A DNA stretch of 64,000 bases from an uncultured Chloroflexia bacterium (GTDB taxonomy: Bacteria > Chloroflexota > Limnocylindria > QHBO01). The notes under the pieces are model-generated. The model was not told the DNA's origin, did no database searches, and worked only from the letters and a program-made list of their open reading frames with translations. Below, piece by piece: positions 2,925 to 47,640 of this stretch. Every line of letters starts with the position of its first letter. The stretch's first letter is position 1. A program made the position numbers and the translations under genes. The stretch covers positions 354,855 through 418,854 of the forward strand of contig CAWJOA010000006.1 of assembly GCA_963844415.1 (NCBI GenBank). The letters are read 5' to 3'.

Positions 2925-4400
2925 ATGCCTATCATGCACGCCGTGTCGGACGTGGCGATCGTCGGAGCCGGCGCGGTCGGCCTGACCCTGGCCGGGCGCC
3001 TGGCCCAGCACGGCGTCGGCGTCGACCTCTTCGAGGCGGAGGCTGAGCGCGAGCGGATCGGCTCGAAGGCGATCTGCATGCAGCGCGAGACCCTCGAGAT
3101 CTGGGCTCGGCTCGGCGTTGGGCAGGCCGTCGCGGACGGCGGCATCCAGTGGCGCGTCGGGCGGACGTATTTCCGCGGCCGCCGGCTGTTCGAGACCCAC
3201 CTGCCCGGCGACGGCGAGCACTTCCCGCCGTTCGTCAACATCAGCCAGTCCGAGGTCGAGGAGCTGCTCGAGGCCCGCGCCCTTGAGCTCGGCGTGCGCA
3301 TCCACCGCGGGCACACGTTCGCCGGGCTGACCCAGGACCCCGACGGTGTGGTCGCCACCTTCGACACCGATGCCGGCGCCGTGACGCATCGGTCCAGCTT
3401 CCTCGTCGGCAGCGATGGCGCCCACTCGTCCGTGCGCCACGCGCTCGGCATCGGCTTCGACGGCTACAGCTTCGACGACCGCTTCCTCATCGCCGATGTC
3501 CGGGCCGAGCTGCCGTTCACGAACGAGCGCCACTTCCACTTCGACCCGCCCTGGAACCCCGGTCGCCAGGTCCTCATCCATCCCCAGCCCGACGGCGTGT
3601 GGCGGATCGACTGGCAGGTCCCGCCGGAGACCGATGCGGACCACGAGCGCACGACCGGTGGCCTCGAGCGGCGCATCCGCGCCGTCATCGGTCCCGACGC
3701 CGCCTACGAGCTCGTCTGGCTGACGGCCTATCGGTTCAGCCAGCGCCTGGCCGATGCGTTCCGTGCCGGCCGCTGCTTCCTCGCCGGCGACGCCGCCCAC
3801 GTGATGTCGCCGTTCGGCGCACGCGGCCTCAACTCCGGCGTCGCCGATGCCGAGAACCTCGCCTGGAAGCTCGCCTGGGTCCTGCGCGGCGAGGCCTCGC
3901 CGTCGCTGCTCGACTCGTACGGGGCCGAGCGCCGGCCGGTCGCGGAGGAGAACCTTCGCGTCACGAGCGAAACGATGCACTTCATGGCGCCGCATGGCCC
4001 GCTGCGCCGCGCCTGGAGGGATCTCGTGCTGCGCATGGCGCCACACAGCGACTGGTTCCGGCGCCGCGTCAACTCTGGCCGTTTGGCGGAGCCGGCGACG
4101 TATGCGGTCGCGGGTGCCCGGCCCTCCGACGCCGTGCGACTCGGATCGGTGGCGCCGGATGTGCCGCTGCCCGGGGGCGGGCGCCTGCGGGATCGACTGG
4201 GGCGCGGGTTCGTGGCGATCGTGCCGAGCGCGGTTGGGGCCCGCGAGCGCGTCGAGGTCGTGGAGGTCGGCTCGGCGACGATCTACGGGCCGGATCGAGC
4301 CTGGCTCGTGCGGCCCGATGGGCATCTGACGGCCAGCGCGTCGTTGGGCGAGGCGAAGACCGGGGCCCTCGAGGCGCTGGTCGCCTCGTCCGTCCGCTAG
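2925..4400 (+). CDS. FAD-dependent aromatic-ring hydroxylase (PheA/TfdB/MhpA-type flavoprotein monooxygenase)
   Basis: C-terminal 492 aa of ORF 1758..4400: MPIMHAVSDVAIVGAGAVGLTLAGRL (dinucleotide-binding fold), FLAGDAAHVMSPFGARGLNSGVADAENLAWKL (conserved GD/FAD-binding motif), C-terminal thioredoxin-like tail typical of the family. Confidence 0.75.
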   Translation: MPIMHAVSDVAIVGAGAVGLTLAGRLAQHGVGVDLFEAEAERERIGSKAICMQRETLEIWARLGVGQAVADGGIQWRVGRTYFRGRRLFETHLPGDGEHFPPFVNISQSEVEELLEARALELGVRIHRGHTFAGLTQDPDGVVATFDTDAGAVTHRSSFLVGSDGAHSSVRHALGIGFDGYSFDDRFLIADVRAELPFTNERHFHFDPPWNPGRQVLIHPQPDGVWRIDWQVPPETDADHERTTGGLERRIRAVIGPDAAYELVWLTAYRFSQRLADAFRAGRCFLAGDAAHVMSPFGARGLNSGVADAENLAWKLAWVLRGEASPSLLDSYGAERRPVAEENLRVTSETMHFMAPHGPLRRAWRDLVLRMAPHSDWFRRRVNSGRLAEPATYAVAGARPSDAVRLGSVAPDVPLPGGGRLRDRLGRGFVAIVPSAVGARERVEVVEVGSATIYGPDRAWLVRPDGHLTASASLGEAKTGALEALVASSVR

Positions 4401-5002
4401 CGGCGCCAGCCGGCGGTCGGCCGCTCCACGCGGGCGGGCTCCCGGGCGGGCGGCACAAGGCCGAACGCAAACGCCACCAGCCCCAGGCCGATGAGCAGCG
4501 GCGCGAGCCAGGCGAACGAGATCGGTGCCTCCAGCGCGGTGTTCGGCTGCCCGCTCTCGTGCGTGGACGGCGCATGGGTGGCGGCGGCCGTCGTGCGCTG
4601 CCGCCGCTCGATCGGTCTCGTTCGCGGTCGAGCCGCCCGCCGCGGGCGCTGCAGTGGACGCTGCTTCGACGACGATCGTGGCCTGCATGTCCGGGTGGTA
4701 CTCGCACAGGTAGGCGTACGTGCCCGGCTCGGTGAACGTGAACGAGAAGCCCACGCCCTCGTCGAGGTTGCCCGAGTCGAAGGCGCCATCGCTCGCGGTG
4801 ACCGTGTGCGGCCGGTCGTCGGCGTTCCTCCACGTCACGGTGTCGCCGACGGGATCGTCAGCGTGGCCGGCGAGAACGTCGAGTCGGTGATCTGAACCTC
4901 GTGCTCGGCACCCCGGACGGGGGCCGGTGCCTCGACGGCAAGGGTGGACGCGACGACGGCGGTGAAGGCGAGTGCCACGGTGATGCGACGAACGGCGGGC
5001 AT
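4397..5002 (-). pseudogene. membrane-anchored type-1 copper cupredoxin (amicyanin/plastocyanin-like), reading frame broken by two compensating frameshifts (about 4852 and about 4590)
   Basis: Signal peptide MPAVRRITVALAFTAVVASTLAVEAPAPVRGAEHEVQITDSTFSPATLTIP is in one frame (ATG at 5002) and stops at TGA 4837. The core PVGDTVTWRNADDRPHTVTASDGAFDSGNL...FTFTEPGTYAYLCEYHPDM is in the 2292..5123 frame. The C-terminal TM anchor ISFAWLAPLLIGLGLVAFAFGLV...WRR* is back in the first frame (ORF 4397..4789). It aligns residue-by-residue with the intact paralog at 5290..5796. Confidence 0.55.
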
Positions 5003-5125: not shown

Positions 5126-5265
5126 GCTCAGCGACTGTTATCGCGAACGAGCGGCTTCAGCAGGCCCAAAACCGGCCCTCGGTTCGTGGTTTGAGCCGCC
5201 CAGCGGGTGGAACCGTGAGCGAACCAGGCGCCGGCGGGCCCCGTTCGCGTTAACAGTCGCTCAGC
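5126..5265. repeat. about 140-bp element bounded by 24-bp imperfect inverted repeats (22/24 match), lower GC than the surroundings, between the two cupredoxin paralogs
   Basis: IR-L gctcagcgactgttatcgcgaacg (5126-5149) and IR-R cgttcgcgttaacagtcgctcagc (5242-5265). IR-R also contains the 17-bp palindrome cagtcgctcagcgactg. Confidence 0.5.
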
Positions 5266-5289
5266 GACTGACGCCGGAAGCCGCGCCCG

Positions 5290-5796
5290 TTACTCCCGCG
5301 GACGTCTCGCGATCACCAGGAGCCCGGCGCCGCCCAGCAGCAGGAGCCCGGTCGCGACGAGGGCGCTGGTCTGCCACCCGGCCGGCATCGCGACGTTGGG
5401 GATCGGCCCGCCACCGCCCGCGGGAGTTGCCGCCGGCGCCGCCGCTACCACGACGATCTGCCCGGTCATGTCGGGGTGCGGCGTGCACAGGTACGTGTAC
5501 GTGCCCGGCGTCGTAAACGTGAAGCTGAACGACGCGCCCTGCGCCAGGTCGCCGGAGTCGAACGCGCCGGCCGTGCTCGTCGCGGTGTGCGCGACCGCGT
5601 CCTCATTCGTCCACGTCACGGTGTCGCCGGCGGTGATCGTGAGCATCGGCGGGGAGAAGGCGAAGTCGGCGATCGTCACCGCGTGCGTTGCCGCCCGCGC
5701 CATCTCGATCGACCCGAGCACGAACAGGATCAATGCCGCCAGCAACAGGGCCAGCGCGCCGCGCCGGGCAGTGGATGCGGCCATCGGTCGGGTCAC
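5290..5796 (-). CDS. membrane-anchored type-1 copper cupredoxin (amicyanin-like, ligands H...C-x2-H-x2-M) with signal peptide and C-terminal TM anchor
   Basis: ORF 5290..5796: signal peptide, TAGDTVTWTNEDAVAHTATS...GTYTYLCTPHPDMTGQIVV, Ala/Pro/Gly linker, then C-terminal helix LVATGLLLLGGAGLLVIARRPRE. Confidence 0.8.
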   Translation of the reverse strand: MTRPMAASTARRGALALLLAALILFVLGSIEMARAATHAVTIADFAFSPPMLTITAGDTVTWTNEDAVAHTATSTAGAFDSGDLAQGASFSFTFTTPGTYTYLCTPHPDMTGQIVVVAAAPAATPAGGGGPIPNVAMPAGWQTSALVATGLLLLGGAGLLVIARRPRE

Positions 5797-30501: not shown

Positions 30502-30563
30502 CGGTCCACGCTACGCCCGCCTCGGTCGCTCGGCAATCGAGGCACCTCCGCTACGATCGCCCG

Positions 30564-33406: not shown

Positions 33407-34162
33407 ATGTTCCCGATCGGCGACGAGAACGAGCGGGGCCACGGGCCTGCCTTCGTCAGCCTGGCGATCATCGGCCTCAACGTCGCGGTCTTCGTGCTGC
33501 TCCAGGACGCCGGCGCCAGCCAGGCGGGCGCAGAGTTCACCTACGGCTACAGCGCGGTCCCGTTCGAGATCGTCAACCAGGTCGACCTGACCACGCCACA
33601 GCCGATCCTGGTCGACGGCCAGACGGTGCCCGTGCCGCAGGAGCCCGGGCCGAGCCCGATCTGGCTGACGCTGTTCACGAGCATGTTCATGCACGGCGGC
33701 TGGCTGCACCTCGCCGGCAACATGCTCTTCCTGTGGGTCTTCGGCGACAACGTCGAGCACCGCATCGGCCACGGGCTGTTCGTTGCCTTCTACCTGCTCG
33801 TCGGGCTGGTCGCCACCGTCGCGCAGATTCTCGTCAACCCCGAGTCGGTCATCCCCACCCTCGGCGCCTCGGGCGCGATCTCCGGGGTGCTCGGCGCGTA
33901 CTTCGTCATGTTCCCGACCAACCGCGTGAACGTCTTCCTCTTTCGCGGCGTCGTGCCGGTGCCGGCGATCGTCGCCATCGGCATGTGGGCCGTCCTCCAG
34001 GTCCTCGCGGGCTTCGGCGACCTGAGCGGCGAGGCCGGGGGCGTCGCGTACGCCGCGCACATCGGCGGCTTCCTGGGCGGTGCCGCGGCGGGCCTCCTCT
34101 TCCGCGCGATCTTCCACGAGCCGCGCCGTCCGCGGGGCATGCCGGCCTCGGCGTACGGATGA
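33407..34162 (+). CDS. rhomboid-family intramembrane serine protease
   Basis: From ATG 33407: MHGGWLHLAGNMLFLWVFG, GASGAISGVLGAY (GxSG), AHIGGFLGG (catalytic His). Confidence 0.8.
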   Translation: MFPIGDENERGHGPAFVSLAIIGLNVAVFVLLQDAGASQAGAEFTYGYSAVPFEIVNQVDLTTPQPILVDGQTVPVPQEPGPSPIWLTLFTSMFMHGGWLHLAGNMLFLWVFGDNVEHRIGHGLFVAFYLLVGLVATVAQILVNPESVIPTLGASGAISGVLGAYFVMFPTNRVNVFLFRGVVPVPAIVAIGMWAVLQVLAGFGDLSGEAGGVAYAAHIGGFLGGAAAGLLFRAIFHEPRRPRGMPASAYG

Positions 34163-34980
34163 GCGCCGCGGTCGGCGAGGCCGCCGGGCTGTTCGGTCCC
34201 GGCAGCGTCGCGTGGCGCGTCGATCGCGAGGTGATCGTCCTCGCCGGGGGTTCCTGCGCGCTGCTCATGCAGGCGGCGCATCCGGTGGTCGCGGCGGGCG
34301 TCGTCCAGCACTCGACGTACGCGACCGATCCGTTCGGACGCCTCCGGCGCACCCTGACCAGCAGCTTCGACGTCGTCTTCGGTACTCGCTCGCGGGCCGA
34401 TGCCGCCATCCGTCGCGTGAATGCCATCCACGCCGCGGTCCGCGGTCGGCTCCCCGACGGCGCGTCGTACACAGCCCGCGATCCGGAGGCGCTGCTGTGG
34501 GTGCATGCCACGCTGATCGACACCGCGCTGCGCATCTACTCGCGGTTCGTTCGGCCCCTCTCGCCCGCCGAGGAGCGCGAGTACCTGCTGGAGGCCTCGG
34601 AGGTCGCCAGGCGGCTCGGCGTCCTGCCTGCAGACCTTCCCGAGGACGTGCCGGAGCTGCGCGGGTGGATGGCGGGGATGGTCGACGACGGCCGCGTGCG
34701 GGTCACGCCGGCCGCGCGGCAGGTCGCCCGCACGGTCCTCTACCCGAGCCGCCTCGTGCCGCGCGTGGCCTGGGACGCCGCGCACCTCATCTCGCTCGCC
34801 ACCCTGCCCGATCCTGTGCGCCGCCAGTACGGGATCGGCTGGTCCGAGGGGCGGGAGCGCGGCGTCGAGCGACTCGCCGCCGTCACCAGGCGAGCGCTCC
34901 CGCTCGTCCCGGCACCGCTGCGCTTCGTGCCGCACGCACGGACCGCGGAGCGCCGCGTGCGCAACGCTCGATGCGGCTGA
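34159..34980 (+). CDS. DUF2236 / MpaB-family (ER-bound oxygenase-like, latex-clearing-protein-related) protein
   Basis: ATG 34159 overlaps the rhomboid stop (ATGA); GPGSVAWRVDREVIVLAGGSCALLMQAAHPVVAAGV...TLIDTALRIYSRF matches the DUF2236 fold. Confidence 0.55.
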   Translation: MSAAVGEAAGLFGPGSVAWRVDREVIVLAGGSCALLMQAAHPVVAAGVVQHSTYATDPFGRLRRTLTSSFDVVFGTRSRADAAIRRVNAIHAAVRGRLPDGASYTARDPEALLWVHATLIDTALRIYSRFVRPLSPAEEREYLLEASEVARRLGVLPADLPEDVPELRGWMAGMVDDGRVRVTPAARQVARTVLYPSRLVPRVAWDAAHLISLATLPDPVRRQYGIGWSEGRERGVERLAAVTRRALPLVPAPLRFVPHARTAERRVRNARCG

Positions 34981-34996
34981 TCAGCCGATCGGTGCG

Positions 34997-36913
34997 GTGG
35001 GATTGATGACCTGGGGGAGCCGCCCACGCCGCATCGGCCGATCGTACTCGCGCGGCTATGATGGGCGGCGCCCGCTCGGCATCGGCCCCAGCCGCAGCGG
35101 CCTCGAGGGAATTCCGACGTTGACCCGATTCGCCAAGCTCGCGGTTGCGGCTGCCGTCGCGACCTTCGTCCTCATCGCCGTAGGCGGCCTCGTGCGCGCC
35201 ACCGACTCGGGGCTCGGCTGCCCGGACTGGCCGCTGTGCTTCGGCGACTGGTTGCCGCCGGCCGATCTCCACGCCTGGATCGAGCACAGCCATCGGCTGA
35301 TTGCGGCCGCCTTCGTCGGCCCGCTCGTCGCGGCGGTGGGCCTCGTCACTGTCTTCAGCGACCGGCGTCGTGACCACCCCCTCCTTGCCGCCGCGGTCAT
35401 TGCCGGCGTGCTCGTCATCGTCCAGTCCGCGCTGGGCGCCGCGGTCGTGCTCGAGCAGCTCCAGGCCGAGCTCGTCACCGCCCACCTTGCGATGGCCCTC
35501 ACTGTCTTGGCGGCGGTCATCTTCATCGCCGAGCGCGCCGCGAACGGACCGATGCCGGCCGCACACGCGCGTCCCGTGCTGACCCGCCTCGTCGCCGTCA
35601 CCGCGGTCGCGCTCTTCGCCCAGATGCTGCTCGGATCGTGGGTCACCGGCCAGGGTGCCGGGCTGGCCTACGCCGACGTCCCGCTGATGGACGGCGCGTT
35701 CGTCCCGGCCATCTCCACCGACACGCAGGCGATCCACGCCGCCCACCGCGGGCTGAGCGTGGTCGTCGCGATCCTCGTGGCGTGGACCGCGGTCGCCATC
35801 CACCGCTCGACCGACGCGCCGGGCCCGAGGCGCCTCGCGATCATCCTCGCCGCGCTCGTGGTGGTGCAGATCGTGCTCGGCCTGCTGAACGTGGCGTCAC
35901 GGCTGTCCGCCCTCTTCGTCGTCCCGCACCTGGCAACCGGCGCCGCCCTGTGGGGCGCATCGGTCTGGCTGCTCCTGACGGCCCGCCGCCTGCGCCCGGC
36001 CGAGCTGCGCGTGACAGCCGCCAAGGCCGAGCCCGGACCGATGGGCACCGTGCGCTCCTACATCGCGCTCACGAAGCCGCGGATCATCGAGCTGCTGCTG
36101 GTGACGACGATCCCGACGATGGTCCTCGCGGCCGGCGGCCTGCCGTCGCCGTGGCTGATGGCCGCGGTGATCCTGGGCGGCACGCTCGCGGCCGGCGGGG
36201 CGAACGCGATCAACATGTACGTCGACCGCGATATCGACGACCTCATGCGCCGCACGCGCCACCGGCCACTGCCGCGCCACGCCGTCCAGCCGCGGGCCGC
36301 GCTCGCGTTCGGCATCGGTCTCAGCGTCGCCGCCTTCGTCTGGCTGGCGCTGACCGTGAACCTGCTGAGTGCCGTGCTCGCGCTCTCGGCGACCGCGTTC
36401 TACATCTTCGTGTACACGCTCTGGCTGAAGCGGAGCACGCCGCAGAACATCGTGATCGGCGGCGCGGCCGGGTGCGTGCCGGTGCTCGTGGCGTGGGCAT
36501 CGGTCACCGGCGAGGTCGGCCTGCCGGCGCTCGTGCTGTTCGCGATCGTCTTCTATTGGACGCCGCCGCACTTCTGGGCGCTCGCGCTGCGCTACCGCGG
36601 GGACTACGCCGCGGCGAAGGTGCCGATGCTCCCCGTCGTGCGCGGCGAGGCGGAGACCGCGCGGCAGATCGTGCTCTACACGATCGCCCTCGTGGCGGTC
36701 AGCCTCCTGCTCTTCCCGGCGGCGGGGATGGGGTGGATCTATCTCGCGGCAGCGGTCGTGCTCGGCGTGCTGTTCCTGTGGCGCGCGCTGCGGTTGCGGG
36801 CCGATGCCGCCAGCGGGCGCGCCGCGATCGGCCTCTTCCGCTACTCGATCAGCTACCTGACCCTGCTCTTCGCCGCCGTCGCCGTCGACGCGCTCGTCTA
36901 CCTGCCGGTCTGA
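34997..36913 (+). CDS. ctaA-ctaB: heme A synthase (CtaA/Cox15)-heme O synthase (protoheme IX farnesyltransferase CtaB/CyoE) fusion; exact start uncertain (GTG 34997 / TTG about 35120)
   Basis: N half: LIAVGGLVRATDSGLGCPDWPLCFGDW, conserved His (EHSHRLIA, HAAHRGL). C half: YIALTKPRIIELLLVTT...NMYVDRDIDDLMRRTRHRPLP...WTPPHFWALAL (CtaB motifs). One continuous 638-codon ORF. Confidence 0.8.
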   Translation: MGLMTWGSRPRRIGRSYSRGYDGRRPLGIGPSRSGLEGIPTLTRFAKLAVAAAVATFVLIAVGGLVRATDSGLGCPDWPLCFGDWLPPADLHAWIEHSHRLIAAAFVGPLVAAVGLVTVFSDRRRDHPLLAAAVIAGVLVIVQSALGAAVVLEQLQAELVTAHLAMALTVLAAVIFIAERAANGPMPAAHARPVLTRLVAVTAVALFAQMLLGSWVTGQGAGLAYADVPLMDGAFVPAISTDTQAIHAAHRGLSVVVAILVAWTAVAIHRSTDAPGPRRLAIILAALVVVQIVLGLLNVASRLSALFVVPHLATGAALWGASVWLLLTARRLRPAELRVTAAKAEPGPMGTVRSYIALTKPRIIELLLVTTIPTMVLAAGGLPSPWLMAAVILGGTLAAGGANAINMYVDRDIDDLMRRTRHRPLPRHAVQPRAALAFGIGLSVAAFVWLALTVNLLSAVLALSATAFYIFVYTLWLKRSTPQNIVIGGAAGCVPVLVAWASVTGEVGLPALVLFAIVFYWTPPHFWALALRYRGDYAAAKVPMLPVVRGEAETARQIVLYTIALVAVSLLLFPAAGMGWIYLAAAVVLGVLFLWRALRLRADAASGRAAIGLFRYSISYLTLLFAAVAVDALVYLPV

Positions 36914-37893
36914 CCGCGCGGGACGCGGGGCGTCCACTGCTCCTCGCCGCGGGCCGCGCGCTCGGCCGCGAGGCGCTCGTCGAGGCGGGCCGTCTTCCGC
37001 TCCTCGGTTCGCACCCAGATCCAGATGACGACGGCCATCCCGACGAGGAAGGCGATGTCCCCGGCGACCCACATGAGGACACCGCCGAGCTGCTGATCCT
37101 CGAGTGGAATCGGCCCCCACGTCCGTCCGTTTGTGACGTAGTGCGGGTAGAGGACGGTGCCCGTGCTCAGCAGCGCGACGCCGAGGAACGAGTTCTGGGG
37201 CAGCGCCAGGAAGAGGTAGAAGAGGCGGACCGGGTACGGCAGGCGCCATGGCGAGGGGTCGACGCCGGTGATCGGCCACCAGAACAGCAGCGCGGCGGCC
37301 AGGAAGGTCGCGTGCTGGACGTAGTGCAGCAGCTGGTTCTCGAGGGCCTCGTCGTAGAGGGTGCTGAAGTGCCAGCCCCAGTTCACCGCGGCGAAGAGGA
37401 CCCAGGCCACGACCGGGAACGAGATCGCCTTGACGAACGGGCTGTGCAGGACCCACAGGAGCTTGCGCCTGACCGTTGGCGTGCTCACCCGCAGCGTGAG
37501 CGTGATCGGTCCGCCGCCCAGCAGCAGCGGCGCGGCGACGAGCATCAGCAGCAGGTGCTGGACCATGTGGACGCTGAACAGGGCGCCCTCGTAGGCCTCG
37601 ATCGGTGATGCCAGGGCCACACCGATCGCGCCGAGTCCGCCCATGAAGCACCACGTCCGGGTCCGCGGGTGCCGGTTGCGCGGGTGGGCGCGGTTCACCG
37701 TCCGGACCGCCCACAGATACGCAGCGGCGGTGGCGACCAGCGGGATCACCACGAGCGGGTCGAAGCGCCAGGCGAGCAGAACCGCCGGGAAGCTCGGCGC
37801 TGCCGCCTCCGCGCCGTGCGCGACCACCGCTGCCGGCGTGACGGCGAGCAGCATCAGAGCGAGGGGGAGGGCGGTGCGACGCATCGGTTCCAT
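36898..37893 (-). CDS. ctaG: cytochrome c oxidase assembly factor CtaG (Caa3_CtaG family membrane protein)
   Basis: From ATG 37893 (MEPMRRTALPLALMLLAVTPAAVVAHG signal): 6-7 TM helices, conserved HMVQHLLLMLVAAPLLL and WWPITG regions. Confidence 0.65.
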   Translation of the reverse strand: MEPMRRTALPLALMLLAVTPAAVVAHGAEAAAPSFPAVLLAWRFDPLVVIPLVATAAAYLWAVRTVNRAHPRNRHPRTRTWCFMGGLGAIGVALASPIEAYEGALFSVHMVQHLLLMLVAAPLLLGGGPITLTLRVSTPTVRRKLLWVLHSPFVKAISFPVVAWVLFAAVNWGWHFSTLYDEALENQLLHYVQHATFLAAALLFWWPITGVDPSPWRLPYPVRLFYLFLALPQNSFLGVALLSTGTVLYPHYVTNGRTWGPIPLEDQQLGGVLMWVAGDIAFLVGMAVVIWIWVRTEERKTARLDERLAAERAARGEEQWTPRVPRGQTGR

Positions 37894-37967
37894 TGTCGCC
37901 TGACTGAGCGGGTATCGGCGAGGAACGGCCATGGAACCGCCGCGCCCGACGTGGCGTCCATGCGGCC

Positions 37968-38954
37968 ATGAATCGAACTGGCCCGGGCTTCCTCGTCGTG
38001 CTCCTCGTCCTCCTCGCGGCGTGCACCACACCCGGTGGCTCGCCGGAGGCCTCACAGACCGATGGCGGCGGCTCGTCGCCGCCCCCGCCGAGCGCGTCGG
38101 ATGGTGACGGAGAGACCGGCGGCATCGAGCACCCCACCGGGGCGGACGAGCCGATCCTCATCGTCGAGGAAATCGGCGGCTTCGCGATGCCGCAGATGAT
38201 CGCCACGCGCGTGCCCACGTTCGCGCTCTACGGCGACGGCCGCGTGATCGTGCAGGGGGCGCAGACACTCGAGTTCCCCGGCCCGGCGCTGCCCGCGCTC
38301 ATCGAGCGCACGATGTCAGAGGAAGGCATCCAGGTCGTGCTCGAGGCGGTCGAGGAGACGAACCTCTTCACCGGCGATCTCGAGCTGAATGGCGCGATGA
38401 ACCAGTGTGCGGACTGCACCGCAACGGCCTTCCGGGCCAACGTGAACGGGGACGATGTGACGGTCAGCGTTTTCGGCCTCGGCATGCTCGACCCGGCCCT
38501 TGGCGGGAACCTCGAGGGCATCGAGCAGTCGGAGATCGATGCGCACGCGGTCCTCAGCCAGCTGCGCGACGCGCTCCTGACCATCGACACCTCGATCCCC
38601 GCCGACGCATGGGAGGCCGACGGCTGGCAGCCGTACGCGCCGGCGGCGTTTCGTCTCTACGTCCGTGACGTGAGCGGCGAGCCGATCGAGGGCGGAGAGC
38701 TGCCCGGGATGGTGCGCGAGTGGCCGACCGACGACGATCCAGCCGCCTTCGGCGAGGAGCTGCCGGTCTTCGGCGACGGCACGCGCTGCGGTGTCGTCGA
38801 GGGCGACGCTGGTGCGGTCTGGTTCGAGGACCTCAGTGCCGCGACCCAGAACACGCTGTGGACCTCCGACGGCGAGAACCGATTCACGGTCCTGCCCCGC
38901 CCGCTCTTCCCGGGCGACGAGGCGACCTGCGCGCAGGAGATCGTCTCCGGCTGA
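37968..38954 (+). CDS. hypothetical secreted lipoprotein (Cys-containing) embedded in the cta locus
   Basis: ORF 37968..38954: LLVVLLVLLAAC lipobox, Ser/Pro/Gly-rich linker, globular domain with NQCADC and TRCG Cys pairs. Confidence 0.55.
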   Translation: MNRTGPGFLVVLLVLLAACTTPGGSPEASQTDGGGSSPPPPSASDGDGETGGIEHPTGADEPILIVEEIGGFAMPQMIATRVPTFALYGDGRVIVQGAQTLEFPGPALPALIERTMSEEGIQVVLEAVEETNLFTGDLELNGAMNQCADCTATAFRANVNGDDVTVSVFGLGMLDPALGGNLEGIEQSEIDAHAVLSQLRDALLTIDTSIPADAWEADGWQPYAPAAFRLYVRDVSGEPIEGGELPGMVREWPTDDDPAAFGEELPVFGDGTRCGVVEGDAGAVWFEDLSAATQNTLWTSDGENRFTVLPRPLFPGDEATCAQEIVSG

Positions 38955-39156
38955 CCCACCTCGGCGCGCGCACGGATGGCGCCGCGCGGATGCCCTTCGC
39001 TACAATGCGGTCCGTGTCGCCCGTCAGCCCGCGGGAGCGTGCGTGCCTGACGCGCGAGGCCGACGCCCCCTGTCGATGCTGACCTGAGGAGCTCTCGAGA
39101 TCGAGCCGACGCACACCACGGCGCCCCGGACCCGGCTGCGGACATCCGCCCGCCGG

Positions 39157-40158
39157 TTGGCGCCGCTCGTGCTCGTCGTCCTGCTGGCCGGCTGCCTCCT
39201 GCCTCCCACGCCGAAGACCGACGCCGGCCAGGACGTCTTCAACCTGTACCTCATCGTGCTCGCCCTGGCGGCGATCGTCTTCGTCGGCGTCGAGGGCTTC
39301 ATCCTGTACGCGGTCTTCCGCTACCGCCGCCAGCCCGGGGACGAGGTCCTGCCCGAGCAGCTGCACGGCAACAACACGGTCGAGATCATCTGGACGATCA
39401 TCCCGACGGTCATCGTCTTCGTCCTCTTCTTCTTCAGCATGCTCACCCTCGCCGAGGTGGAGGCCAGCTCGGACGTCCAGGACGCCGAGACGGTCCAGGT
39501 GGAGGCGTTCTCGTGGGGCTGGAGGTTCCTGTACGAGAACGGCGCCGAGGCGTCCGGTACGGCGCAGGAGCCGCCCGTGCTCGCGCTGCCGGTGGACGAG
39601 CCGGTGCGCCTGGTCCTGACGTCGATCGACGTCAACCACGCCTTCTACGTCCCCGACTTCCTCATCAAGCGCGACGTCATCGACTTCGGCGAAGGACGCG
39701 GGACGAACGAGCTGACGTTCACGATCACCGAGGTCGGAACCTATGCCGGCCAATGCGCCGAGTTCTGCGGCACGGGCCACGCCGAGATGGTCTTCACCGT
39801 CGATGCCCAGGAGCGCGCCGACTATGACGCCTACGTCGAGGCCCTGGCCTCCGCCGCGCCGCCGCCGGGCGGTGACGCCGAGGACTGCGGCACGACCATC
39901 CAGCTCGCGGCGGTCGAGAGCCTCCAGTTCGACACCGATGCGATCGAGGCACCCGCCGGCGAGGCGTTCTGCATCGAGTTCACGAACAACGACACCGTCC
40001 CGCACGACGTCGGCATCGCCGAGACCGACTTCGATGGCGAGAACGTGGACCCCGGCGAGTCGATCACCTACGTCATCCCCGCCATGGATGCGGGCACGTT
40101 TACGTTCTACTGCACCATCCATCCGGCGATGGAAGGCACCCTCACCGTCAACGAGTAA
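39157..40158 (+). CDS. ctaC: cytochrome c oxidase subunit II (CuA) fused to a C-terminal type-1-copper cupredoxin domain (amicyanin-like) in place of a cytochrome c domain
   Basis: TTG 39157; lipobox LVLVVLLAGC, two TM helices, CuA site HAFYVPDF...CAEFCGTGHAEM. Then a second domain with T1Cu ligands HDVGI...YCTIHPAMEG; no CxxCH anywhere. Confidence 0.8.
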   Translation: MAPLVLVVLLAGCLLPPTPKTDAGQDVFNLYLIVLALAAIVFVGVEGFILYAVFRYRRQPGDEVLPEQLHGNNTVEIIWTIIPTVIVFVLFFFSMLTLAEVEASSDVQDAETVQVEAFSWGWRFLYENGAEASGTAQEPPVLALPVDEPVRLVLTSIDVNHAFYVPDFLIKRDVIDFGEGRGTNELTFTITEVGTYAGQCAEFCGTGHAEMVFTVDAQERADYDAYVEALASAAPPPGGDAEDCGTTIQLAAVESLQFDTDAIEAPAGEAFCIEFTNNDTVPHDVGIAETDFDGENVDPGESITYVIPAMDAGTFTFYCTIHPAMEGTLTVNE

Positions 40159-40172
40159 GGCACGAGAGACCG

Positions 40173-41840
40173 ATGGCGACCACGACCCTCGAACCCCAGA
40201 CCGGCGCCTCCGCCTACCGGCGATCGTGGGTGATCGACTGGCTGACGACCGTCGACCACAAGAAGATCGGGATCCTGTACATCGTCAACAGCTTCCTCTT
40301 CTTCTTCGCCGCCGGGATCCTCGCGCTCGTGGTGCGCAGCGAGCTGGCCGTGCCGGGGCTCCAGATCGTCGACGCCGACACGTTCAACCAGGCGTTCACG
40401 ATGCACGGGACGATCATGCTGTTCCTGTTCGTCATCCCGGCGCTGAGCGGCTTCGCGAACTACATCGTCCCGCTCATGCTCGGGGCGCCGGACATGGCGT
40501 TCCCTCGCATCAACGCCCTCAGCTTCTGGCTCCTGCCGCTCGGTGGGCTGCTGATCTTCAGCGGCTATCTCTTCGGTGGCGCGGCCGCCGAGGGTTGGAC
40601 GGCCTACACGCCGCTCTCGAACATCAGTGAGGGCGTGGGGACCGACCTCTGGATCATCGGCCTGGCCCTGGTGGGAACCGCATCCATCCTCGGCGCGGTG
40701 AACTTCATCACCACGATCTTCAAGATGCGCGCGCCGGGCATGACCCTTTTCCGGATGCCGATCTTCGTGTGGACCGTGCTCGTCACCGCCGTGCTCATCC
40801 TGCTCGCCACGCCCGTGCTGACGGCCGGGCTGATCGCGCTCTTCATCGACCGCAACTACGGCGGCTCGTTCTTCGACCCGACCGTTGGCGGCAGCCCGAT
40901 CCTGTGGCAGCACATCTTCTGGTTCTTCGGCCACCCCGAGGTCTACATCGTCATCCTGCCGGCGATGGGCGTGGTGAGCGAGGTGCTGCCGGTCTTCAGC
41001 CGCAAGCCGCTGTTCGGCTACCGGGCATTCGTGTTCGCCACGATCGCCATCGGCCTGCTGAGCTGGACGGTGTGGGCGCACCACATGTTCACGACCGGCT
41101 CGGTGTTCCTGCCGTTCTTCAGCTTCATGACCGCCCTCATCGCCATCCCGACCGGCATCAAGATGTTCAACTGGCTCGCGACGCTGTGGCGAGGCAAGAT
41201 CACGCTCACGACGCCGATGCTGTTCGCGCTCGGCTTCATCAGCATGTTCCTCATCGGCGGCATCAGCGGGGTCATGCTCGCCTCGCCGCCGATCGACTTC
41301 CACGTCCAGGACACGTACTTCGTCGTGGCGCATCTGCACTACGTCTTCTTCGGCGGCGCGGTCTTCGGCGTCTTCGCGGCGATGTACTACTGGTTCCCGA
41401 AGATGACCGGTCGGATGCTCAACGACCGGCTCGGGAAGGTCCATTTCTGGATCCACTTCATCGGCTTCAACCTCGCCTTCTTCCCGATGCACCAGCTCGG
41501 CCTGTCGGGCATGCCGCGGCGGGTCAGCGACTACGCCGATCGGCCGGACTGGGTGATCCTCAACGCCGTCTCGACGGTCGGCGCGTTCATGATCGCGGTG
41601 AGCATCATCCCGTTCCTCATCAACGTGATCGCCAGCCTCATCAACGGCGAGCGAGCCGGCGACGATCCGTGGGAGGGCAACACGCTGGAGTGGGCGACGA
41701 CCAGCCCGCCGCCGCCGTACAACTTCGACCGCCTGCCGCCCATCCACTCCGAGCGGCCGCTCTTCTTCCTGACCCACGGGCACGGGCATGCCGTGGCCCG
41801 TGACACCGATCTCGACGAAGAGCACGAGGCGCAGGCATGA
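40173..41840 (+). CDS. ctaD: cytochrome c oxidase subunit I
   Basis: ORF 40173..41840, 12 TM helices, heme/CuB ligands in WFFGHPEVYIV and HHMFT contexts. Confidence 0.9.
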   Translation: MATTTLEPQTGASAYRRSWVIDWLTTVDHKKIGILYIVNSFLFFFAAGILALVVRSELAVPGLQIVDADTFNQAFTMHGTIMLFLFVIPALSGFANYIVPLMLGAPDMAFPRINALSFWLLPLGGLLIFSGYLFGGAAAEGWTAYTPLSNISEGVGTDLWIIGLALVGTASILGAVNFITTIFKMRAPGMTLFRMPIFVWTVLVTAVLILLATPVLTAGLIALFIDRNYGGSFFDPTVGGSPILWQHIFWFFGHPEVYIVILPAMGVVSEVLPVFSRKPLFGYRAFVFATIAIGLLSWTVWAHHMFTTGSVFLPFFSFMTALIAIPTGIKMFNWLATLWRGKITLTTPMLFALGFISMFLIGGISGVMLASPPIDFHVQDTYFVVAHLHYVFFGGAVFGVFAAMYYWFPKMTGRMLNDRLGKVHFWIHFIGFNLAFFPMHQLGLSGMPRRVSDYADRPDWVILNAVSTVGAFMIAVSIIPFLINVIASLINGERAGDDPWEGNTLEWATTSPPPPYNFDRLPPIHSERPLFFLTHGHGHAVARDTDLDEEHEAQA

Positions 41841-42460
41841 CCGCGCGCACGATGCAGGCCCATCCGCCCGGCGAGGAGGAGGCTGCCGCCGCCCTGGCGC
41901 ACGGCGGATCCGGCATGCCGACCCCCCTCGTCGGCATGCTCCTGTTCATCGCCAGCGAGGTGATGTTCTTCGGCGGCCTCTTCGCGGCCTACTTCAACGC
42001 GCGTGCCCTGGTCGGGCCGGGCAACTGGCGCCCGCCCGAGGGCTCTCACCTCGACCTGCCGCTGGCGGCGGTGCTCACCGCAATTCTCATCGCCTCGAGC
42101 TTCACGATGCAGTTCGGCGTGTGGGCCATCCGGCGCGGCGACACCGGCAAGCTGAAGCTGTGGACCGCGATCACGCTCGGCCTCGGCGTCCTCTTCCTCG
42201 CGGGCCAGCTGTACGACTACAGCCAGCTCGGCTTCTCGATCGCCGACAGCTCCTACGGCACGGTCTTCTACACGCTGACCGGCTTCCACGGCGCCCACGT
42301 CTTCGGTGGGGCGGTCGGCCTGACGATCATCCTGGCCCGCACGATGCGCGGCCAGTTCAGCGCGCGCAACCATGTCGCGGTCGAGGCGGTCAGCGTGTAC
42401 TGGCACTTCGTCGACGTGGTCTGGATCGCCGTGTTCAGCACGATCTACCTGCTCGGCTAG
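41837..42460 (+). CDS. ctaE: cytochrome c oxidase subunit III
   Basis: ORF 41837..42460; FIASEVMFFGGLFAAYF and TGFHGAHVFGG motifs; ATGA overlap with ctaD. Confidence 0.85.
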   Translation: MTARTMQAHPPGEEEAAAALAHGGSGMPTPLVGMLLFIASEVMFFGGLFAAYFNARALVGPGNWRPPEGSHLDLPLAAVLTAILIASSFTMQFGVWAIRRGDTGKLKLWTAITLGLGVLFLAGQLYDYSQLGFSIADSSYGTVFYTLTGFHGAHVFGGAVGLTIILARTMRGQFSARNHVAVEAVSVYWHFVDVVWIAVFSTIYLLG

Positions 42461-42470
42461 GAGTGAACCG

Positions 42471-42836
42471 ATGACCGATACCGCCATCGGCTTCCTCATC
42501 GTCGGCATCGCCATGCTCGTCGTGCTGGGCGTGGTGTTCGCGATCTCGTCGAGGCCGCGCCCGGCGAGCGCGAAGCCGGTTCCGCCCGATGGCGTGCACC
42601 TGCCGCCGCCGAGCTACCTGCCGGCGGTCGTCTCGCTCGGCGCCGCGCTCATCGGTGCCGGGCTGGCGTTCCGCGCCGAGGACCAGCTGGCCAACCCGTT
42701 CCTCGCGATCCCGGGCCTCGTCATCCTCGTGCTCGGCATCCTGTGGTGGGTCCGCGCCGCCAACCGCGAGTGGCGCGAGGTCGAGCACGGTGGTCACGGG
42801 TCGCATGCCCCGCACGACGACCACGCCGCGCACTGA
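42471..42836 (+). CDS. ctaF: small membrane subunit, probable cytochrome c oxidase subunit IV (CtaF-like)
   Basis: From ATG 42471 (MTDTAIGFLIVGIAMLVVLGVVFA..), 2-3 TM helices, position directly after ctaE as in actinobacterial cta operons. Confidence 0.5.
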   Translation: MTDTAIGFLIVGIAMLVVLGVVFAISSRPRPASAKPVPPDGVHLPPPSYLPAVVSLGAALIGAGLAFRAEDQLANPFLAIPGLVILVLGILWWVRAANREWREVEHGGHGSHAPHDDHAAH

Positions 42837-42842
42837 CCGCCG

Positions 42843-43403
42843 ATGACCGGCGGCCGCCGCGGGGTCGAGCTGCGGCGCCTGCCGCGGTGGGTCCTGGTGC
42901 TCGCGGCGGCCCTGCCGGTCGCGATGCTCCTGCTGCTTGCCGCGGCCTTCTACGTCGGCGGCCGGTCGGGATCGCCGACGACGATCGGCAGCACGGCGCC
43001 CGACTTCAGCCTCGTCGACCTCGACGGCAACGAGGTGCGTCTTGCCGACCTCCGCGGCAGCCCGGTCGTCGTCAACTTCTGGGCATCGTGGTGCGCGCCG
43101 TGCGTCGAGGAATTCCCGCTCCTGCGCGAGGCCGCCGAGGAGCACGTCGACGACGGCCTGGTCGTGCTCGGAATCGTGTACCAGGACCGATCCGAGGCGG
43201 CGCGCGCGTTCATGGAGCGCAACGGCGGGAGCTGGCAGGCGCTGATGGATCCTGACGAGCGCGTCGCGACGGCGTATAAGATCTTTGCGCCGCCGGAGAC
43301 CTACTTCATCGGGCGCGACGGACGGATCGTCGCGCGGCACATCGGCCAGTTCACGGCCGAGTCGCTGGAGGCGAAGGTGGCCGCGATCATTGACGAGGAG
43401 TGA
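42843..43403 (+). CDS. membrane-anchored thiol-disulfide oxidoreductase (TlpA/ResA-like thioredoxin)
   Basis: ORF 42843..43403: N-terminal anchor then NFWASWCAPCVEEFP thioredoxin CxxC motif. Confidence 0.75.
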   Translation: MTGGRRGVELRRLPRWVLVLAAALPVAMLLLLAAAFYVGGRSGSPTTIGSTAPDFSLVDLDGNEVRLADLRGSPVVVNFWASWCAPCVEEFPLLREAAEEHVDDGLVVLGIVYQDRSEAARAFMERNGGSWQALMDPDERVATAYKIFAPPETYFIGRDGRIVARHIGQFTAESLEAKVAAIIDEE

Positions 43404-43405
43404 GC

Positions 43406-43588
43406 ATGGAGTCGAACCTTCCCGCGACGAGCTCCGAAACCGCGCTGGCGGAGCGCGAGGATGCGCCAGCCGAACCGCTGCCCCGCAATCAGCCGCTGAG
43501 CGTCGCCTTCCTGCCGCTCGCGCTCGTCGTCTTCATCCTGCTCGCGTTCATCATCGCCACCTGGACCTTCCTCTCCGCCGGCGCCTGA
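43406..43588 (+). CDS. small single-TM hypothetical protein (60 aa) ending the cta cluster
   Basis: ATG 43406 inside ORF 43400..43588; helix LSVAFLPLALVVFILLAFIIATWTF. Confidence 0.35.
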   Translation: MESNLPATSSETALAEREDAPAEPLPRNQPLSVAFLPLALVVFILLAFIIATWTFLSAGA

Positions 43589-43636
43589 GGGCGGAGCCGC
43601 GTTCCCCCGTGCCGGCCAGCGTGGTTGGCCTTCGCG

Positions 43637-43701
43637 CCAAATCGGGTCAGCCAGGCGACCGAGGAACCGCTCCACATCGGTCACAAGGCCAACCCGATTG
43701 G
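43637..43701. terminator. long-range inverted repeat (CCAAATCGGGT ... ACCCGATTGG) between convergent genes
   Basis: 11/10-nt arms separated by 44 nt, read directly; between the 43588 end and the 43710 end of opposed genes. Confidence 0.25.
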
Positions 43702-43709
43702 CGGAGTCG

Positions 43710-44141
43710 TCAGGCCGTGGTGATCGGCTGTGACCCTGGGCGAAGTGAGCCGAGTGCCGCGCTGAGCAGTCCAGCGGGCGAGCCGTAGAGGCGGACGAGG
43801 TCGGCCGCGAGCAGCGCGATGATCGCGACCTCGACGCCCTTCGCCACCCAGCCGAGGCTGAAGTACGGGCCCATGACGAGGTAGGCGACGATCGTGACCG
43901 CTGCGTAGCCGGCGAGCCCGACGCGCGGCAGCCACGCGAAACGCCGCACGAACGGATGGGGGACAGCCGAGACGACGAGCGCCGCCGCCAGCGCGGCGTA
44001 GCCGATCGCGTTGAGCGTGAACAGCATTCCCCCGAGCGTCAGATGAATGTACGCGGTGATGAGCGCCAGGTCGACGATCGCGATGGTCAGGCCCACCGCC
44101 AACGCGGTTGCGGCGCGGCTGTCGTGTGTCGTGGCAGGCAT
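43710..44141 (-). CDS. hypothetical 4-TM membrane protein (143 aa)
   Basis: From ATG 44141 (MPATTHDSRAATALAVGLTIAIVDLALITAYIHLTLGG..); the rest of ORF 43710..44726 upstream is junk. Confidence 0.5.
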   Translation of the reverse strand: MPATTHDSRAATALAVGLTIAIVDLALITAYIHLTLGGMLFTLNAIGYAALAAALVVSAVPHPFVRRFAWLPRVGLAGYAAVTIVAYLVMGPYFSLGWVAKGVEVAIIALLAADLVRLYGSPAGLLSAALGSLRPGSQPITTA

Positions 44142-44256
44142 CGGTCTGCACTCCAGATATGTGCTACTTGACGGGAGCAAGTATAGCGCCGCCGTCTCGC
44201 GCGCGCAAGGAATAAATGTCCCGGCCGCGCCGGGATCGGTTCGGGAAAGCTGCGCC

Positions 44257-45492
44257 TCAGGACGGCGTGGCGCTCCCGGGCGTCGGGTACCGGCGCACGA
44301 CGTAGTCGTCGAGGATGGCGAGGAAGCGCGGCACGATGTCATCGCCGCGCAGCGTCTCGGTCTTCTCGCCGTCCACGAAGACCGGCGCCACCGGCTCCTC
44401 GAACGTGCCGGGCAGGCTGATCCCGATGTCGGCGTGCTTCGACTCGCCCGGCCCGTTGACAACGCAGCCCATGACCGCGACCCGCAGCTCCTCGACGCCC
44501 GGATGCGCCTCGCGCCAGCGCGGCATCTGCTCGACGAGATAGGCCTGGATGTCCCGGGCCATCTCCTGGAAGAAGGTCGAGGTGGTGCGGCCGCAGCCGG
44601 GGCAGGCCGAGACCTGGGGCAGGAACGAGCGCAGGCCCATCGACTGGAGCACCTGCTGCGCGACCTGCACCTCCTGCGTCCGGTCGCCGCCGGGCTCGGG
44701 CGTGAGGCTGACGCGGATCGTGTCACCGATCCCGCGCTGGAGCAGGATCGCGAGTCCCGCGGTGGAGGCGATGATGCCCTTGGCGCCCATCCCGGCCTCG
44801 GTCAGGCCAAGATGCAGCGGGTAGTCGCACCGATCCGCCAGGCGGTGGTAGACCTCGACGAGGTCCGGCACGCCGGAGACCTTGGCCGACAGGATGATCC
44901 GATCGTGGGGCAGGCCGGTCTCCTCGGCGAGGCGGGCGGAGCGCAGCGCCGACTCGACCATCGCCTCGATCATCACGTCGCGGCTGTCCTTCGGATCGGG
45001 CGACGCGGCGTTGGCGTCCATCATCTCGGTCAGCAGCTGCTGGTCGAGCGAGCCCCAGTTGACACCGATGCGGACCGGCACCCCGTTGGCGATCGCGACC
45101 TCGATGATCTGCGCGAACTGCTCGTCGCGCCGCTTCGTGCCGACGTTGCCCGGGTTGATCCGGTACTTCGCCAGGGCGGCGGCCATCTCCGGGTATTTGG
45201 TGAGCAGCAGATGCCCGTTGTAGTGGAAGTCACCGATGAGCGGCACGCCGACCCCCAGCGCGTCGAGCTTGGCGCGAATGGCCGGCACGGCCTGCGCGGC
45301 AGCATCGTTGTTGACGGTGACACGGACGAGCTCGGAGCCGGCATGCGCCAGCTGCGCGACCTGGATGGCGGTGGCGTCGGCATCCGCGGTGTCGGTGTTC
45401 GTCATCGACTGGACGACGACCGGGTGGTCCGATCCGACGGGAACGCCACCCACCAGGACGGTTGGCGTCGTGCGCCGTGGGGGTACGCTCAT
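44257..45492 (-). CDS. ispG: 4-hydroxy-3-methylbut-2-en-1-yl diphosphate synthase (flavodoxin-type GcpE)
   Basis: From ATG 45492 ([33 protein letters not shown]..); TIM-barrel motifs, LRVSLTPEP, 4Fe-4S ligands [10 protein letters not shown]...MGCVVNG. Confidence 0.9.
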
Positions 45493-45550: not shown

Positions 45551-45967
45551 GTGACCGAGCACGCGGAGACCGGCGGGGATCAGGCCAGGCACGTCTGGAT
45601 CGTCGAGGACGATCCGGCGGCGGCGACCCTCGCAGCCGAGCTGTGCGAGGGATGGGGCGCGCAGGTCTCGGTCTTTCGGGCACCGCTGCCGTTCCTCTCC
45701 GCGCTCAGGGATCGGCCGCAGCCGACCGCGGTCGTGCTCGACTGGCGGCTCGAGCGCGAGCTGAGCGCCGGGCTGTTCCTCGCGACGCGGCACCGGTACC
45801 CGCGCCTGCCGGTCATCTATTGGACCGGGCACGCCGCCGGGGCGCTGCCGTCGATGATCACCGACGACGCGCTGACGACGGTCGTCGACAAGGCCGATGG
45901 CACCGGTCCGTTCGAGCGTGCCCTCGACTGGGCGAGCCGCGTCGGGGCCGAGGAGCCCGCGCCCTAG
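45551..45967 (+). CDS. stand-alone response-regulator receiver domain protein (CheY-like, no output domain)
   Basis: GTG 45551; [18 protein letters not shown] (acidic pocket DD), VVLDWRL (phospho-acceptor D), downstream T/K positions plausible. Confidence 0.6.
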
Positions 45968-47199: not shown

Positions 47200-47640
47200 C
47201 GGCCGTTCGCCTCCGCGAGCTCCTTCACCCGGCGCAGCGTGCGCCCGGCGATGGCCTCGATGAACTGTGGGCCGATGACGTGCTCGGCGGCGAAGCCGCC
47301 GATGCAGCGGCCAGTCCAGCTCGAGCTCGTGCTCGATGCTCACATCGAGCACGCCGTCGCGCTCCTCGAATTGCCAGGCGACCTCCATCCCGCGCGTCAC
47401 GCCGCCGGTGTGGATGAACTCGATCCGGCGCTGCTCGGGCAGCGGCCGCTGGATGGCGCGCCAGCTGACCGGGATCGGGCCGCGTCGCGCGCCCATCTCG
47501 AAGTGGCGCTCCGCCCGATCGGGCAGGCGGCGGACGTATCGGTAGTGGGGGAGGATCTCCGGCCAGCGCTCGACCTCGGCCGCCAGGTCGAAGACCCGCT
47601 CGAACGGCGCGTGCATGACCTGGTGGATCCAGCTTTTCAC
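47196..47640 (-). pseudogene. SRPBCC (polyketide-cyclase/START-like lipid-binding) protein with a frameshift about 40 codons before its end; as written it runs in-frame into fabF
   Basis: ORF 45964..47640 N-terminal 147 aa (MKSWIHQVMHAPFERVFDLAAEVERWPEI...). After ..ELELDWPL the sensible continuation IGGFAAEHVIGPQFIEAIAGRTLRRVKELAEANGR* is in the +1 frame and ends with TGA overlapping the fabF ATG (ATGA). Confidence 0.5.

Follow-up and report, generated by a model that had tools for sequence, protein, structure and literature searches.

The heme-copper oxidase operon at positions 34997-43588 of a 64-kb stretch of DNA (the window, here always the whole stretch analyzed) from an uncultured Ca. 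Limnocylindria (Chloroflexota) soil bacterium encodes a subunit II, CtaC, with a predicted C-terminal type-1 copper (T1Cu) domain located where caa3 enzymes have cytochrome c, an assignment supported by family profiles, ligand conservation and structure comparison. We consider it likely that this tethered blue copper serves as the electron entry relay to CuA, making the enzyme a copper analogue of caa3 oxidase. To our knowledge, fused-carrier heme-copper oxidases are textbook material only in their heme c form (caa3). Judging from sequence comparison, the CtaC-T1Cu design is conserved class-wide in Limnocylindria, and synteny of the operon extends over about 80 species-level genomes of this class.

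Subunit II combines a CuA core with a predicted blue-copper domain

The CtaC protein (window 39157-40158) comprises a lipobox, two N-terminal transmembrane (TM) helices, the extracytoplasmic CuA domain, a linker and a C-terminal cupredoxin domain (residues ~246-333, window ~39892-40155). Its CuA site is complete (H161, C200, E202, C204, H208 and M211; TIGR02866, 191.9 bits vs. a cut-off of 147.7), which sets this subunit II apart from that of quinol oxidases. The C-terminal domain matches two Pfam families, PF13473 Cupredoxin_1 (59.6 bits, cut-off 27) and PF00127 Copper-bind (26.5, cut-off 21.2); i.e., the COX2 CuA and the cupredoxin families are both found above cut-off on 39157..40158, as expected from an earlier reading of the same DNA (hereafter, the original prediction).

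The proposed T1Cu ligands are H283, C319, H322 and M325 (VPHDVGI ... YCTIHPAMEG). In an alignment of 78 CtaC orthologs with identities of 46-89%, all four are present in every sequence (78/78), as are the six CuA ligands, and mean identity to the window CtaC is 50% for the cupredoxin part and 63% for the COX2 part. The invariance of all ten ligands, in a protein whose T1Cu domain averages only 50% identity, points to selection on the copper site. The site region holds exactly one Cys in 78/78 orthologs, which argues for a T1Cu rather than a second CuA site; an NCBIfam NosZ match of CtaC, considered as a possible second CuA center, was rejected because of this single Cys and reflects cupredoxin and CuA similarity. 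The spacing between the T1Cu His and Met varies across the orthologs from 2 to 4 residues (H-x2-M, H-x3-M, H-x4-M). Thus, the ligands of the amicyanin-like motif HDVGI...YCTIHPAMEG proposed originally are real, but its C-x2-H-x2-M spacing is confined to the subclade of the window. Copper occupancy of the site would be expected from this ligand set.

The closest solved relatives of the domain are 9cck, a Nitrosopumilus multicopper enzyme with a tethered C-terminal cupredoxin (2.8e-10), and the amicyanin 1id2 (1.9e-6), in both of which the His and the Cys-His-Met loop can be matched to those of CtaC position by position; auracyanin A yields a weak match (E 0.001). In the AlphaFold2 (AF2) model of CtaC, with a mean predicted local distance difference test (pLDDT) score of 84.9, two well-folded domains are observed, and the cupredoxin beta-sandwich reaches a pLDDT of 90-96. 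The linker between them (approximately residues 230-245; 13-22 residues across orthologs; rich in Pro, Gly, Ala and Ser) includes the sole stretch with pLDDT <50, residues 234-240. The best structural match of the model is the Thermus caa3 subunit II (2yev_B), followed by mycobacterial CtaC.

Two further cysteines, C244 and C272 (window 39886-39972), are both present in 41/78 orthologs and both absent in the other 37, a pattern that suggests a lineage-specific disulfide. The 5' end of ctaC is less regular. The TTG start at 39157 would yield a signal peptide without a charged N-region, homologs begin ~17 codons upstream, where the window has ACG, and a GAGGAG box at 39086-39091 precedes an in-frame ATC at 39100 by eight bases. 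The true start is probably upstream of 39157, within 39100-39136, and involves either an unusual start codon or a base error.

Spread and annotation of the architecture

A scan for CtaC in species-representative genomes yielded 231 relatives, and the loci described here are the best 80 of these, in which CtaC is full length and 46-84% identical to that of the window. Nearly all of the corresponding metagenome-assembled genomes (MAGs) are labeled Ca. Limnocylindria, Chloroflexota or "uncultured Chloroflexia," and the few other taxon labels among them are probably binning errors. Frame-shifted genes are frequent in related MAGs and resemble assembly indels, so that little weight should be placed on a disruption confined to one gene (e.g., that of the second cupredoxin gene of the window, at 4400-5002).

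Among 5.8 billion proteins searched, 1383 CtaC homologs were detected. The best 120 of these all share the three-domain architecture, and those that have a name are called only "cytochrome c oxidase subunit II." A more distant second clade, one member of which is labeled Ca. Limnocylindrales, contributes 3134 further matches with the same architecture; its CtaC and CtaD are 41% and 68% identical, respectively, to those of the window. The comparison with public databases proposed originally has revealed thousands of proteins with the CtaC-cupredoxin architecture. Two apparently free 124-aa standalone cupredoxins (P0124 and P0129, 65-68% identity) were rejected as truncated gene calls of CtaC.

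Cupredoxins of oxidase operons elsewhere and further cupredoxin genes of the window

Relatives of the CtaC copper domain recur around other oxidases. In the operon of the second clade, a sister clade of Limnocylindrales oxidase operons (L086, L087), ctaG (minus strand) is followed by ctaC-T1Cu, ctaD and ctaE and then by genes for a small peptide, a protein of ~375 aa and a redoxin. The protein of ~375 aa (L086 13697-14833; L087 13617-14741) comprises a duplicated module like that of the small subunit CtaF and a C-terminal cupredoxin with the full ligand set. Since CtaC and this duplicated CtaF each carry a T1Cu domain, the sister-clade oxidase has two tethered predicted blue coppers. PCuAC-like and SCO1 genes are located downstream of the operon in L087.

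Of the multi-domain relatives of the CtaC cupredoxin, the closest include proteins that are anchored in the membrane and have two or three such domains (di- and tri-cupredoxins); named members of this protein family have an Actinomycetota label. The gene of such a protein is found inside a caa3 operon in three independent contigs (L081 8001-8921, L082 8001-9272 and L084 8001-8960), the order of that operon being CcdA, ResB, ResC, cytochrome c-fused CtaC, CtaD, CtaE, COX4_pro, Caa3_CtaG, cupredoxin protein, redoxin and CtaA-CtaB fusion. System II cytochrome c maturation genes are located upstream in L082-L085. Overall, the CtaC cupredoxin family is tied to A-type oxidases in three ways, which provides the strongest indirect support for a joint function.

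The window itself has two further cupredoxin genes (4400-5796), at a distance of 29 kb from the oxidase locus:

5290..5796, minus strand: standalone plastocyanin-family T1Cu protein (Copper-bind 1.9e-13, Cupredoxin_1 9e-12; site H...CTPHPDM), equipped with a signal peptide and, at the C-terminus, a TM anchor
4400..5002, minus strand: another T1Cu gene (CEYHPDM), in tandem with the first and divided among three reading-frame pieces

The first of these, the neighbors of which are not respiratory, is a candidate partner of the oxidase. In the second, the sequence ...TIPVGDTVTW... would be regained through an indel of one base within the run of C near 4840, and the split is probably an assembly indel, possibly a sign of a pseudogene.

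P0121 (1154 aa) and about 100 other proteins are secreted or anchored and carry blue-copper domains in tandem arrays of up to 8-10, with C-x2-H-x2-M in every domain. These poly-cupredoxins are some of the nearest relatives of the copper domain of CtaC and resemble copper "wires."

The cytochrome c question, proposed mechanism and alternative readings

In this DNA of ~70% G+C, real genes were distinguished from shadow open reading frames (ORFs) by third-position GC (GC3). No CxxCH motif is present in the six frames of 34000-44500 or in the GC3-supported ORFs of the window. The absence of CxxCH from subunit II thus holds irrespective of frameshifts, all six frames of the locus being clean and the C-terminal domain being a Cupredoxin_1. 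The broader statement that there is "no c-type cytochrome" is valid for the locus and the window and does not extend to the genome: zero CxxCH in 64 kb equals chance expectation (by a rough estimate, ~0.04 hits) and is statistically uninformative at that level. Across ~424,000 residues of credible ORFs from the 80 loci and the window, no Rieske-like motif was detected, and three CxxCH matches were judged spurious.

In the proposed mechanism, the T1Cu domain on the outer membrane face would take single electrons from an upstream donor, either a quinol-oxidizing complex directly or a membrane-anchored cupredoxin like those encoded at 4400-5796, and would pass them to CuA and further to heme a and heme a3-CuB. 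With its flexible tether, the domain would be able to move back and forth between its donor and CuA, and the fusion would prevent loss of the carrier from a cell that likely lacks an outer membrane. Amicyanin- and plastocyanin-type sites have potentials of roughly +250 to +400 mV, which would suit CuA. The route that the electrons take, its direction and the donor at its start are our inference; the donor may be another cupredoxin, complex III directly or a c-type cytochrome.

Three observations weigh against this relay. The inter-domain placement in the AF2 model is uncertain (predicted template modeling score, pTM, 0.59). Genes of complex III, alternative complex III (ACIII) and cytochrome c maturation were found neither in the scanned ORFs of the window nor in the flanks of the 80 Limnocylindria loci, and the respiratory chain therefore cannot be reconstructed. 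Finally, cupredoxins coexist with cytochrome c-fused CtaC in the Actinomycetota-labeled operons; thus, cupredoxins of the CtaC-domain family need not replace cytochrome c. The original proposal that the oxidase is "wired to blue-copper electron carriers" is conjectural: the fused domain would itself be the carrier, and the anchored T1Cu genes at 4400-5796 and the homologous cupredoxins in oxidase operons elsewhere are in line with it, but the donor could be a c-type cytochrome of a complex III or ACIII encoded elsewhere.

The same architecture could indeed operate in a mixed chain, in which a c-type cytochrome, belonging to a bc-type complex or to an ACIII encoded elsewhere in the genome, reduces the T1Cu and only the last carrier has changed from heme c to copper. 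We regard this as a serious possibility, though not the one we would expect. Chloroflexota commonly have an ACIII with c-type hemes, which reduces auracyanin, and the Actinomycetota-labeled operons join System II maturation genes, a cytochrome c-fused CtaC and cupredoxins; the absence of CxxCH from 64 kb, being without statistical weight, leaves room for such a donor. On the other hand, no cytochrome c or maturation gene is located near the oxidase in the 80 Limnocylindria loci, whereas in the Actinomycetota-labeled loci they are adjacent, and the window has several T1Cu genes. The opposite extreme, i.e., that Limnocylindria and perhaps related soil lineages run an all-copper, cytochrome c-independent high-potential segment (from a quinol-oxidizing complex without a cytochrome c1-type subunit via anchored or fused blue coppers, such as that of CtaC here and the second one on the duplicated CtaF of the sister clade, to CuA), is a tentative and rather doubtful extension of the relay.

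Another alternative, which appears improbable, is that the T1Cu is fed not from the quinol pool but directly by an extracytoplasmic substrate or enzyme, e.g., by Fe(II), as with rusticyanin or sulfocyanin, or by a periplasmic dehydrogenase, as with amicyanin and methylamine dehydrogenase. The presence of amicyanin among the closest solved relatives, the association of sulfocyanin with oxidase subunit II in Ferroplasma (PMC10654088) and the closeness to the domain of poly-cupredoxins (up to 8-10 repeats) resembling extracellular wires are all in line with such a supply. However, the fusion is a class-wide housekeeping feature of generalist soil and freshwater heterotrophs, in a fixed position beside ispG and a rhomboid gene, and the window has no methylamine dehydrogenase or iron-oxidation genes. 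Least probable of all is that the C-terminal domain is a copper delivery/storage or structural module for CuA assembly and not a redox relay: Sco and PCuAC are absent from the locus and PCuAC chaperones also have a cupredoxin-like fold (PMC9145763), but the His-Cys-His-Met set in the cupredoxin C-terminal loop is the canonical one of a redox T1Cu and not the chaperone motif H(M)X10MX21HXM, the Pfam matches are to plastocyanin/azurin-type families, and a sister-clade locus has the fused domain as well as separate PCuAC-like and SCO1 genes.

Organization of the operon

The nine genes of the locus are located where the original prediction had placed them; one of them, ctaG, is on the opposite strand, which had been left unsaid:

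34997..36913, plus strand: CtaA-CtaB fusion (heme A synthase and heme O synthase), 638 aa; Pfam COX15-CtaA 1e-43 (residues 47-322), UbiA 1e-66 (367-611); NF003349, 420 bits vs. cut-off 246
36898..38055, minus strand: Caa3_CtaG-type assembly factor; Pfam PF09678 3e-75; convergent with ctaAB
37968..38954, plus strand: lipoprotein, 328 aa, lipobox LLAAC; no family match
39157..40158, plus strand: CtaC, subunit II; COX2_TM, COX2, Cupredoxin_1 (3.4e-16, residues 253-331); Copper-bind 9e-6
40173..41840, plus strand: CtaD, subunit I, A1-type; Pfam COX1 2e-170, full length; TIGR02891, 747.9 bits vs. cut-off 670.75
41837..42460, plus strand: CtaE, short subunit III; Pfam COX3 2e-37, profile positions 78-256 of 258; NF050119, 190 bits vs. 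cut-off 190
42471..42836, plus strand: CtaF-like small subunit, membrane protein, 121 aa
42843..43403, plus strand: membrane-anchored TlpA/ResA-like thiol-disulfide oxidoreductase (redoxin), WASWCAPC; AhpC-TSA 6e-28, Redoxin 5e-25
43400..43588, plus strand: single-TM peptide, 60-62 aa; tblastn matches in >50 loci

From ctaC through the peptide gene, intergenic gaps are at most 14 bases or the genes overlap by four (the start of ctaE, e.g., overlaps the stop of ctaD), which makes these genes one tight operon; a scan for promoters and terminators found nothing exceeding background. The order rhomboid ... ctaAB, ctaG (minus), lipoprotein, ctaC, ctaD, ctaE, ctaF-like, redoxin, peptide, ispG (minus) is kept in almost all 80 loci. 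The gene content supports the prediction of an A1-type aa3 oxidase operon with the heme A pathway and a part of the copper/thiol assembly machinery. The description of a "complete" biogenesis locus was overstated, as Sco, PCuAC and Surf1 are absent from it (the inventory of assembly factors used for this comparison being that of Hederstedt's review, PMC9145763).

Both fusions proposed for the locus, CtaA-CtaB and CtaC-cupredoxin, are real. In the former, COX15-CtaA and UbiA/heme O synthase domains share one frame, and a single ORF is found in nearly all 80 related loci, the exceptions looking like assembly frameshifts; such a fusion was already known in Chloroflexi (PMC8239418). Its true start may be a few tens of codons downstream of 34997. 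For CtaG, orthologs align from approximately residue 46 on, and the probable start is at 37884-37932. The adjacent CtaA-CtaB fusion suggests heme A cofactors for the oxidase, which would couple oxygen reduction to proton pumping. The CtaD translation contains FFGHPEVY, with the D-channel glutamate motif GHPEV.

The lipoprotein (37968-38954) has no relative in Pfam, NCBIfam or the PDB. It is present in 59 loci, with C19, H55, C274 and C321 conserved, and missing from some others, and thus appears, across the compared loci, conserved yet dispensable. Its CADC motif was dropped as a candidate metal site because it is not conserved. In seven loci, namely L052, L058 (4295-9764), L066, L068, L070 (4310-9758), L071 and L077, a [NiFe]-hydrogenase cluster between ctaG and ctaC takes the place of the lipoprotein; it contains a cyclic nucleotide (cNMP)-binding protein, an iron-sulfur (FeS)/flavin (FAD) subunit, small and large subunits and HypC.

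The CtaF-like protein alone has no significant Pfam match (PF12270, Cyt_c_ox_IV, E 3.6). PF12270 matches 8/17 of its orthologs weakly (best E 0.002), and a homologous protein of L086 carries a precomputed match to this family. A profile of the 17 orthologs aligns with yeast COX3 residues 13-72 (E 6e-6) and weakly with bovine, human and other mammalian COX3, and the conserved GVHxPxPSxLP, in which H42 is invariant, aligns with the COX3 motif HMVxPSPWP. The CtaF-like protein would thus be a remote homolog of the first two TM helices of the canonical 7-TM subunit III. With CtaE covering only COX3 profile positions 78-256 and the CtaF-like protein these first two helices, subunit III would in effect be split. 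In the Actinomycetota-labeled L081 and L082, the CtaF-like module is fused to the C-terminus of CtaD. The His-rich C-terminal tail of the CtaF-like protein, EHGGHGSHAPHDDHAAH (window 42780-42833), has a conserved H108 and terminal His, the remainder being variable, and could possibly handle metal.

The redoxin has an N-terminal hydrophobic segment, and C84 and C87 of its WCAPC motif are invariant in 61/61 orthologs. Its best NCBIfam match is to ResA (107 bits, cut-off 170), with 50 bits for TlpA NF047696 (cut-off 230). Of its initial designation as a TlpA-like CuA-assembly thioredoxin, the membrane-anchored thioredoxin fold and the CxxC are thus retained, but the protein falls below every equivalog cut-off; its position in the operon suggests that it might keep the CuA cysteines reduced. 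The last gene, translationally coupled to that of the redoxin (tlpA), encodes a peptide of 60-62 aa that is 33-87% identical across >50 loci, with conserved LPAT and WTFL motifs; its start is likely M3 at 43406, and the 62-aa form belongs to no Pfam or NCBIfam family.

Elsewhere in the window, an ORF at 45964-48045 (minus strand) combines polyketide cyclase/dehydrase and beta-ketoacyl synthase, and an ORF at 29509-30510 (minus strand) has a sulfite-oxidase-type molybdopterin domain.

Implications

A class-wide copper version of a fused-carrier oxidase would represent a natural experiment on the replacement of iron by copper in the last carrier, performed by widespread uncultured soil and freshwater bacteria. 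A soluble fragment comprising the CuA and T1Cu domains provides an expressible target for studies of intramolecular T1Cu-to-CuA electron transfer. Annotation overlooks the fusion: proteins of this kind carry the plain label subunit II in thousands of cases, and metabolic reconstructions consequently take for granted a cytochrome c donor that these bacteria possibly lack. Both the CtaF-T1Cu fusion and the di- and tri-cupredoxins in caa3 operons suggest that, in terrestrial Chloroflexota and Actinomycetota, A-type oxidases wired by cupredoxins form a wider, undescribed theme. Were the all-copper chain true, the relay would do with copper what the diheme bridge of QcrC does in the III2-IV2 supercomplex of actinobacteria. 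The Limnocylindria segment would then also give bacteria a parallel to ammonia-oxidizing archaea, for which chains based on copper are proposed. It would likewise correspond to the chains of this kind put forward for haloarchaea (PMC8305020).

Comparison with known systems

In full-text literature searches, including the supplements of a 2026 Limnocylindria paper, we found no account of a subunit II-blue copper fusion or of Limnocylindria respiration. A close parallel is provided by caa3 oxidase (Thermus thermophilus 2YEV; Bacillus subtilis CtaC), which is likewise A-type, has a one-electron carrier fused C-terminally to CuA and shares the CtaA, CtaB and Caa3_CtaG set; the carrier there is heme c, whereas here it is a predicted cupredoxin, without CxxCH or nearby maturation genes. 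The closest curated models are those of the actinobacterial aa3 oxidase (NF050116, NF050117 and NF050119, matched just at or below cut-offs). As part of the bcc-aa3 supercomplex of Mycobacterium and Corynebacterium, that enzyme resembles the present one in its lipoprotein CtaC, its short CtaE plus small CtaF and the lack of a soluble cytochrome c. It differs in that its CtaC has no blue copper and is fed by the diheme QcrC, and the CtaF-like protein described here is only remotely related to PF12270.

With respect to the copper domain itself, Paracoccus amicyanin and 9cck share the four aligned ligands and the C-x2-H-x2-M spacing, and the T1Cu of 9cck is also tethered C-terminally to a copper enzyme. 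However, amicyanin serves methylamine dehydrogenase as a free carrier in the periplasm, and the tethered domain of 9cck is part of a multicopper oxidase (copper-containing nitrite reductase being another title given to its chains) and not of a respiratory oxidase. Within the same phylum, in the auracyanin/ACIII system of Chloroflexus and Roseiflexus, blue-copper proteins anchored in a membrane of the monoderm type transport electrons along its outer side; unlike the fused CtaC domain, auracyanins are azurin-like proteins in their own right.

The nearest precedents for a direct link between blue copper and an oxidase are the fusion of halocyanin with subunit IIa (PMC3128077, PMC8305020) and the sulfocyanin found with the Ferroplasma oxidase (PMC10654088). 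Haloarchaea are believed to rely on copper proteins in place of cytochrome c, and the halocyanin-CbaD (subunit IIa) fusion of their ba3 oxidase is likewise a blue-copper carrier fused to a heme-copper oxidase subunit (PMC3128077, PMC8305020). That system differs in being archaeal and B-type, with the carrier fused to the single-helix subunit IIa and not to the CuA subunit, and is itself known without experimental characterization. Overall, the novelty of the Limnocylindria enzyme is that of a copper form within the known class of fused-carrier oxidases, and not of a new category, its sequences being abundant in public databases.

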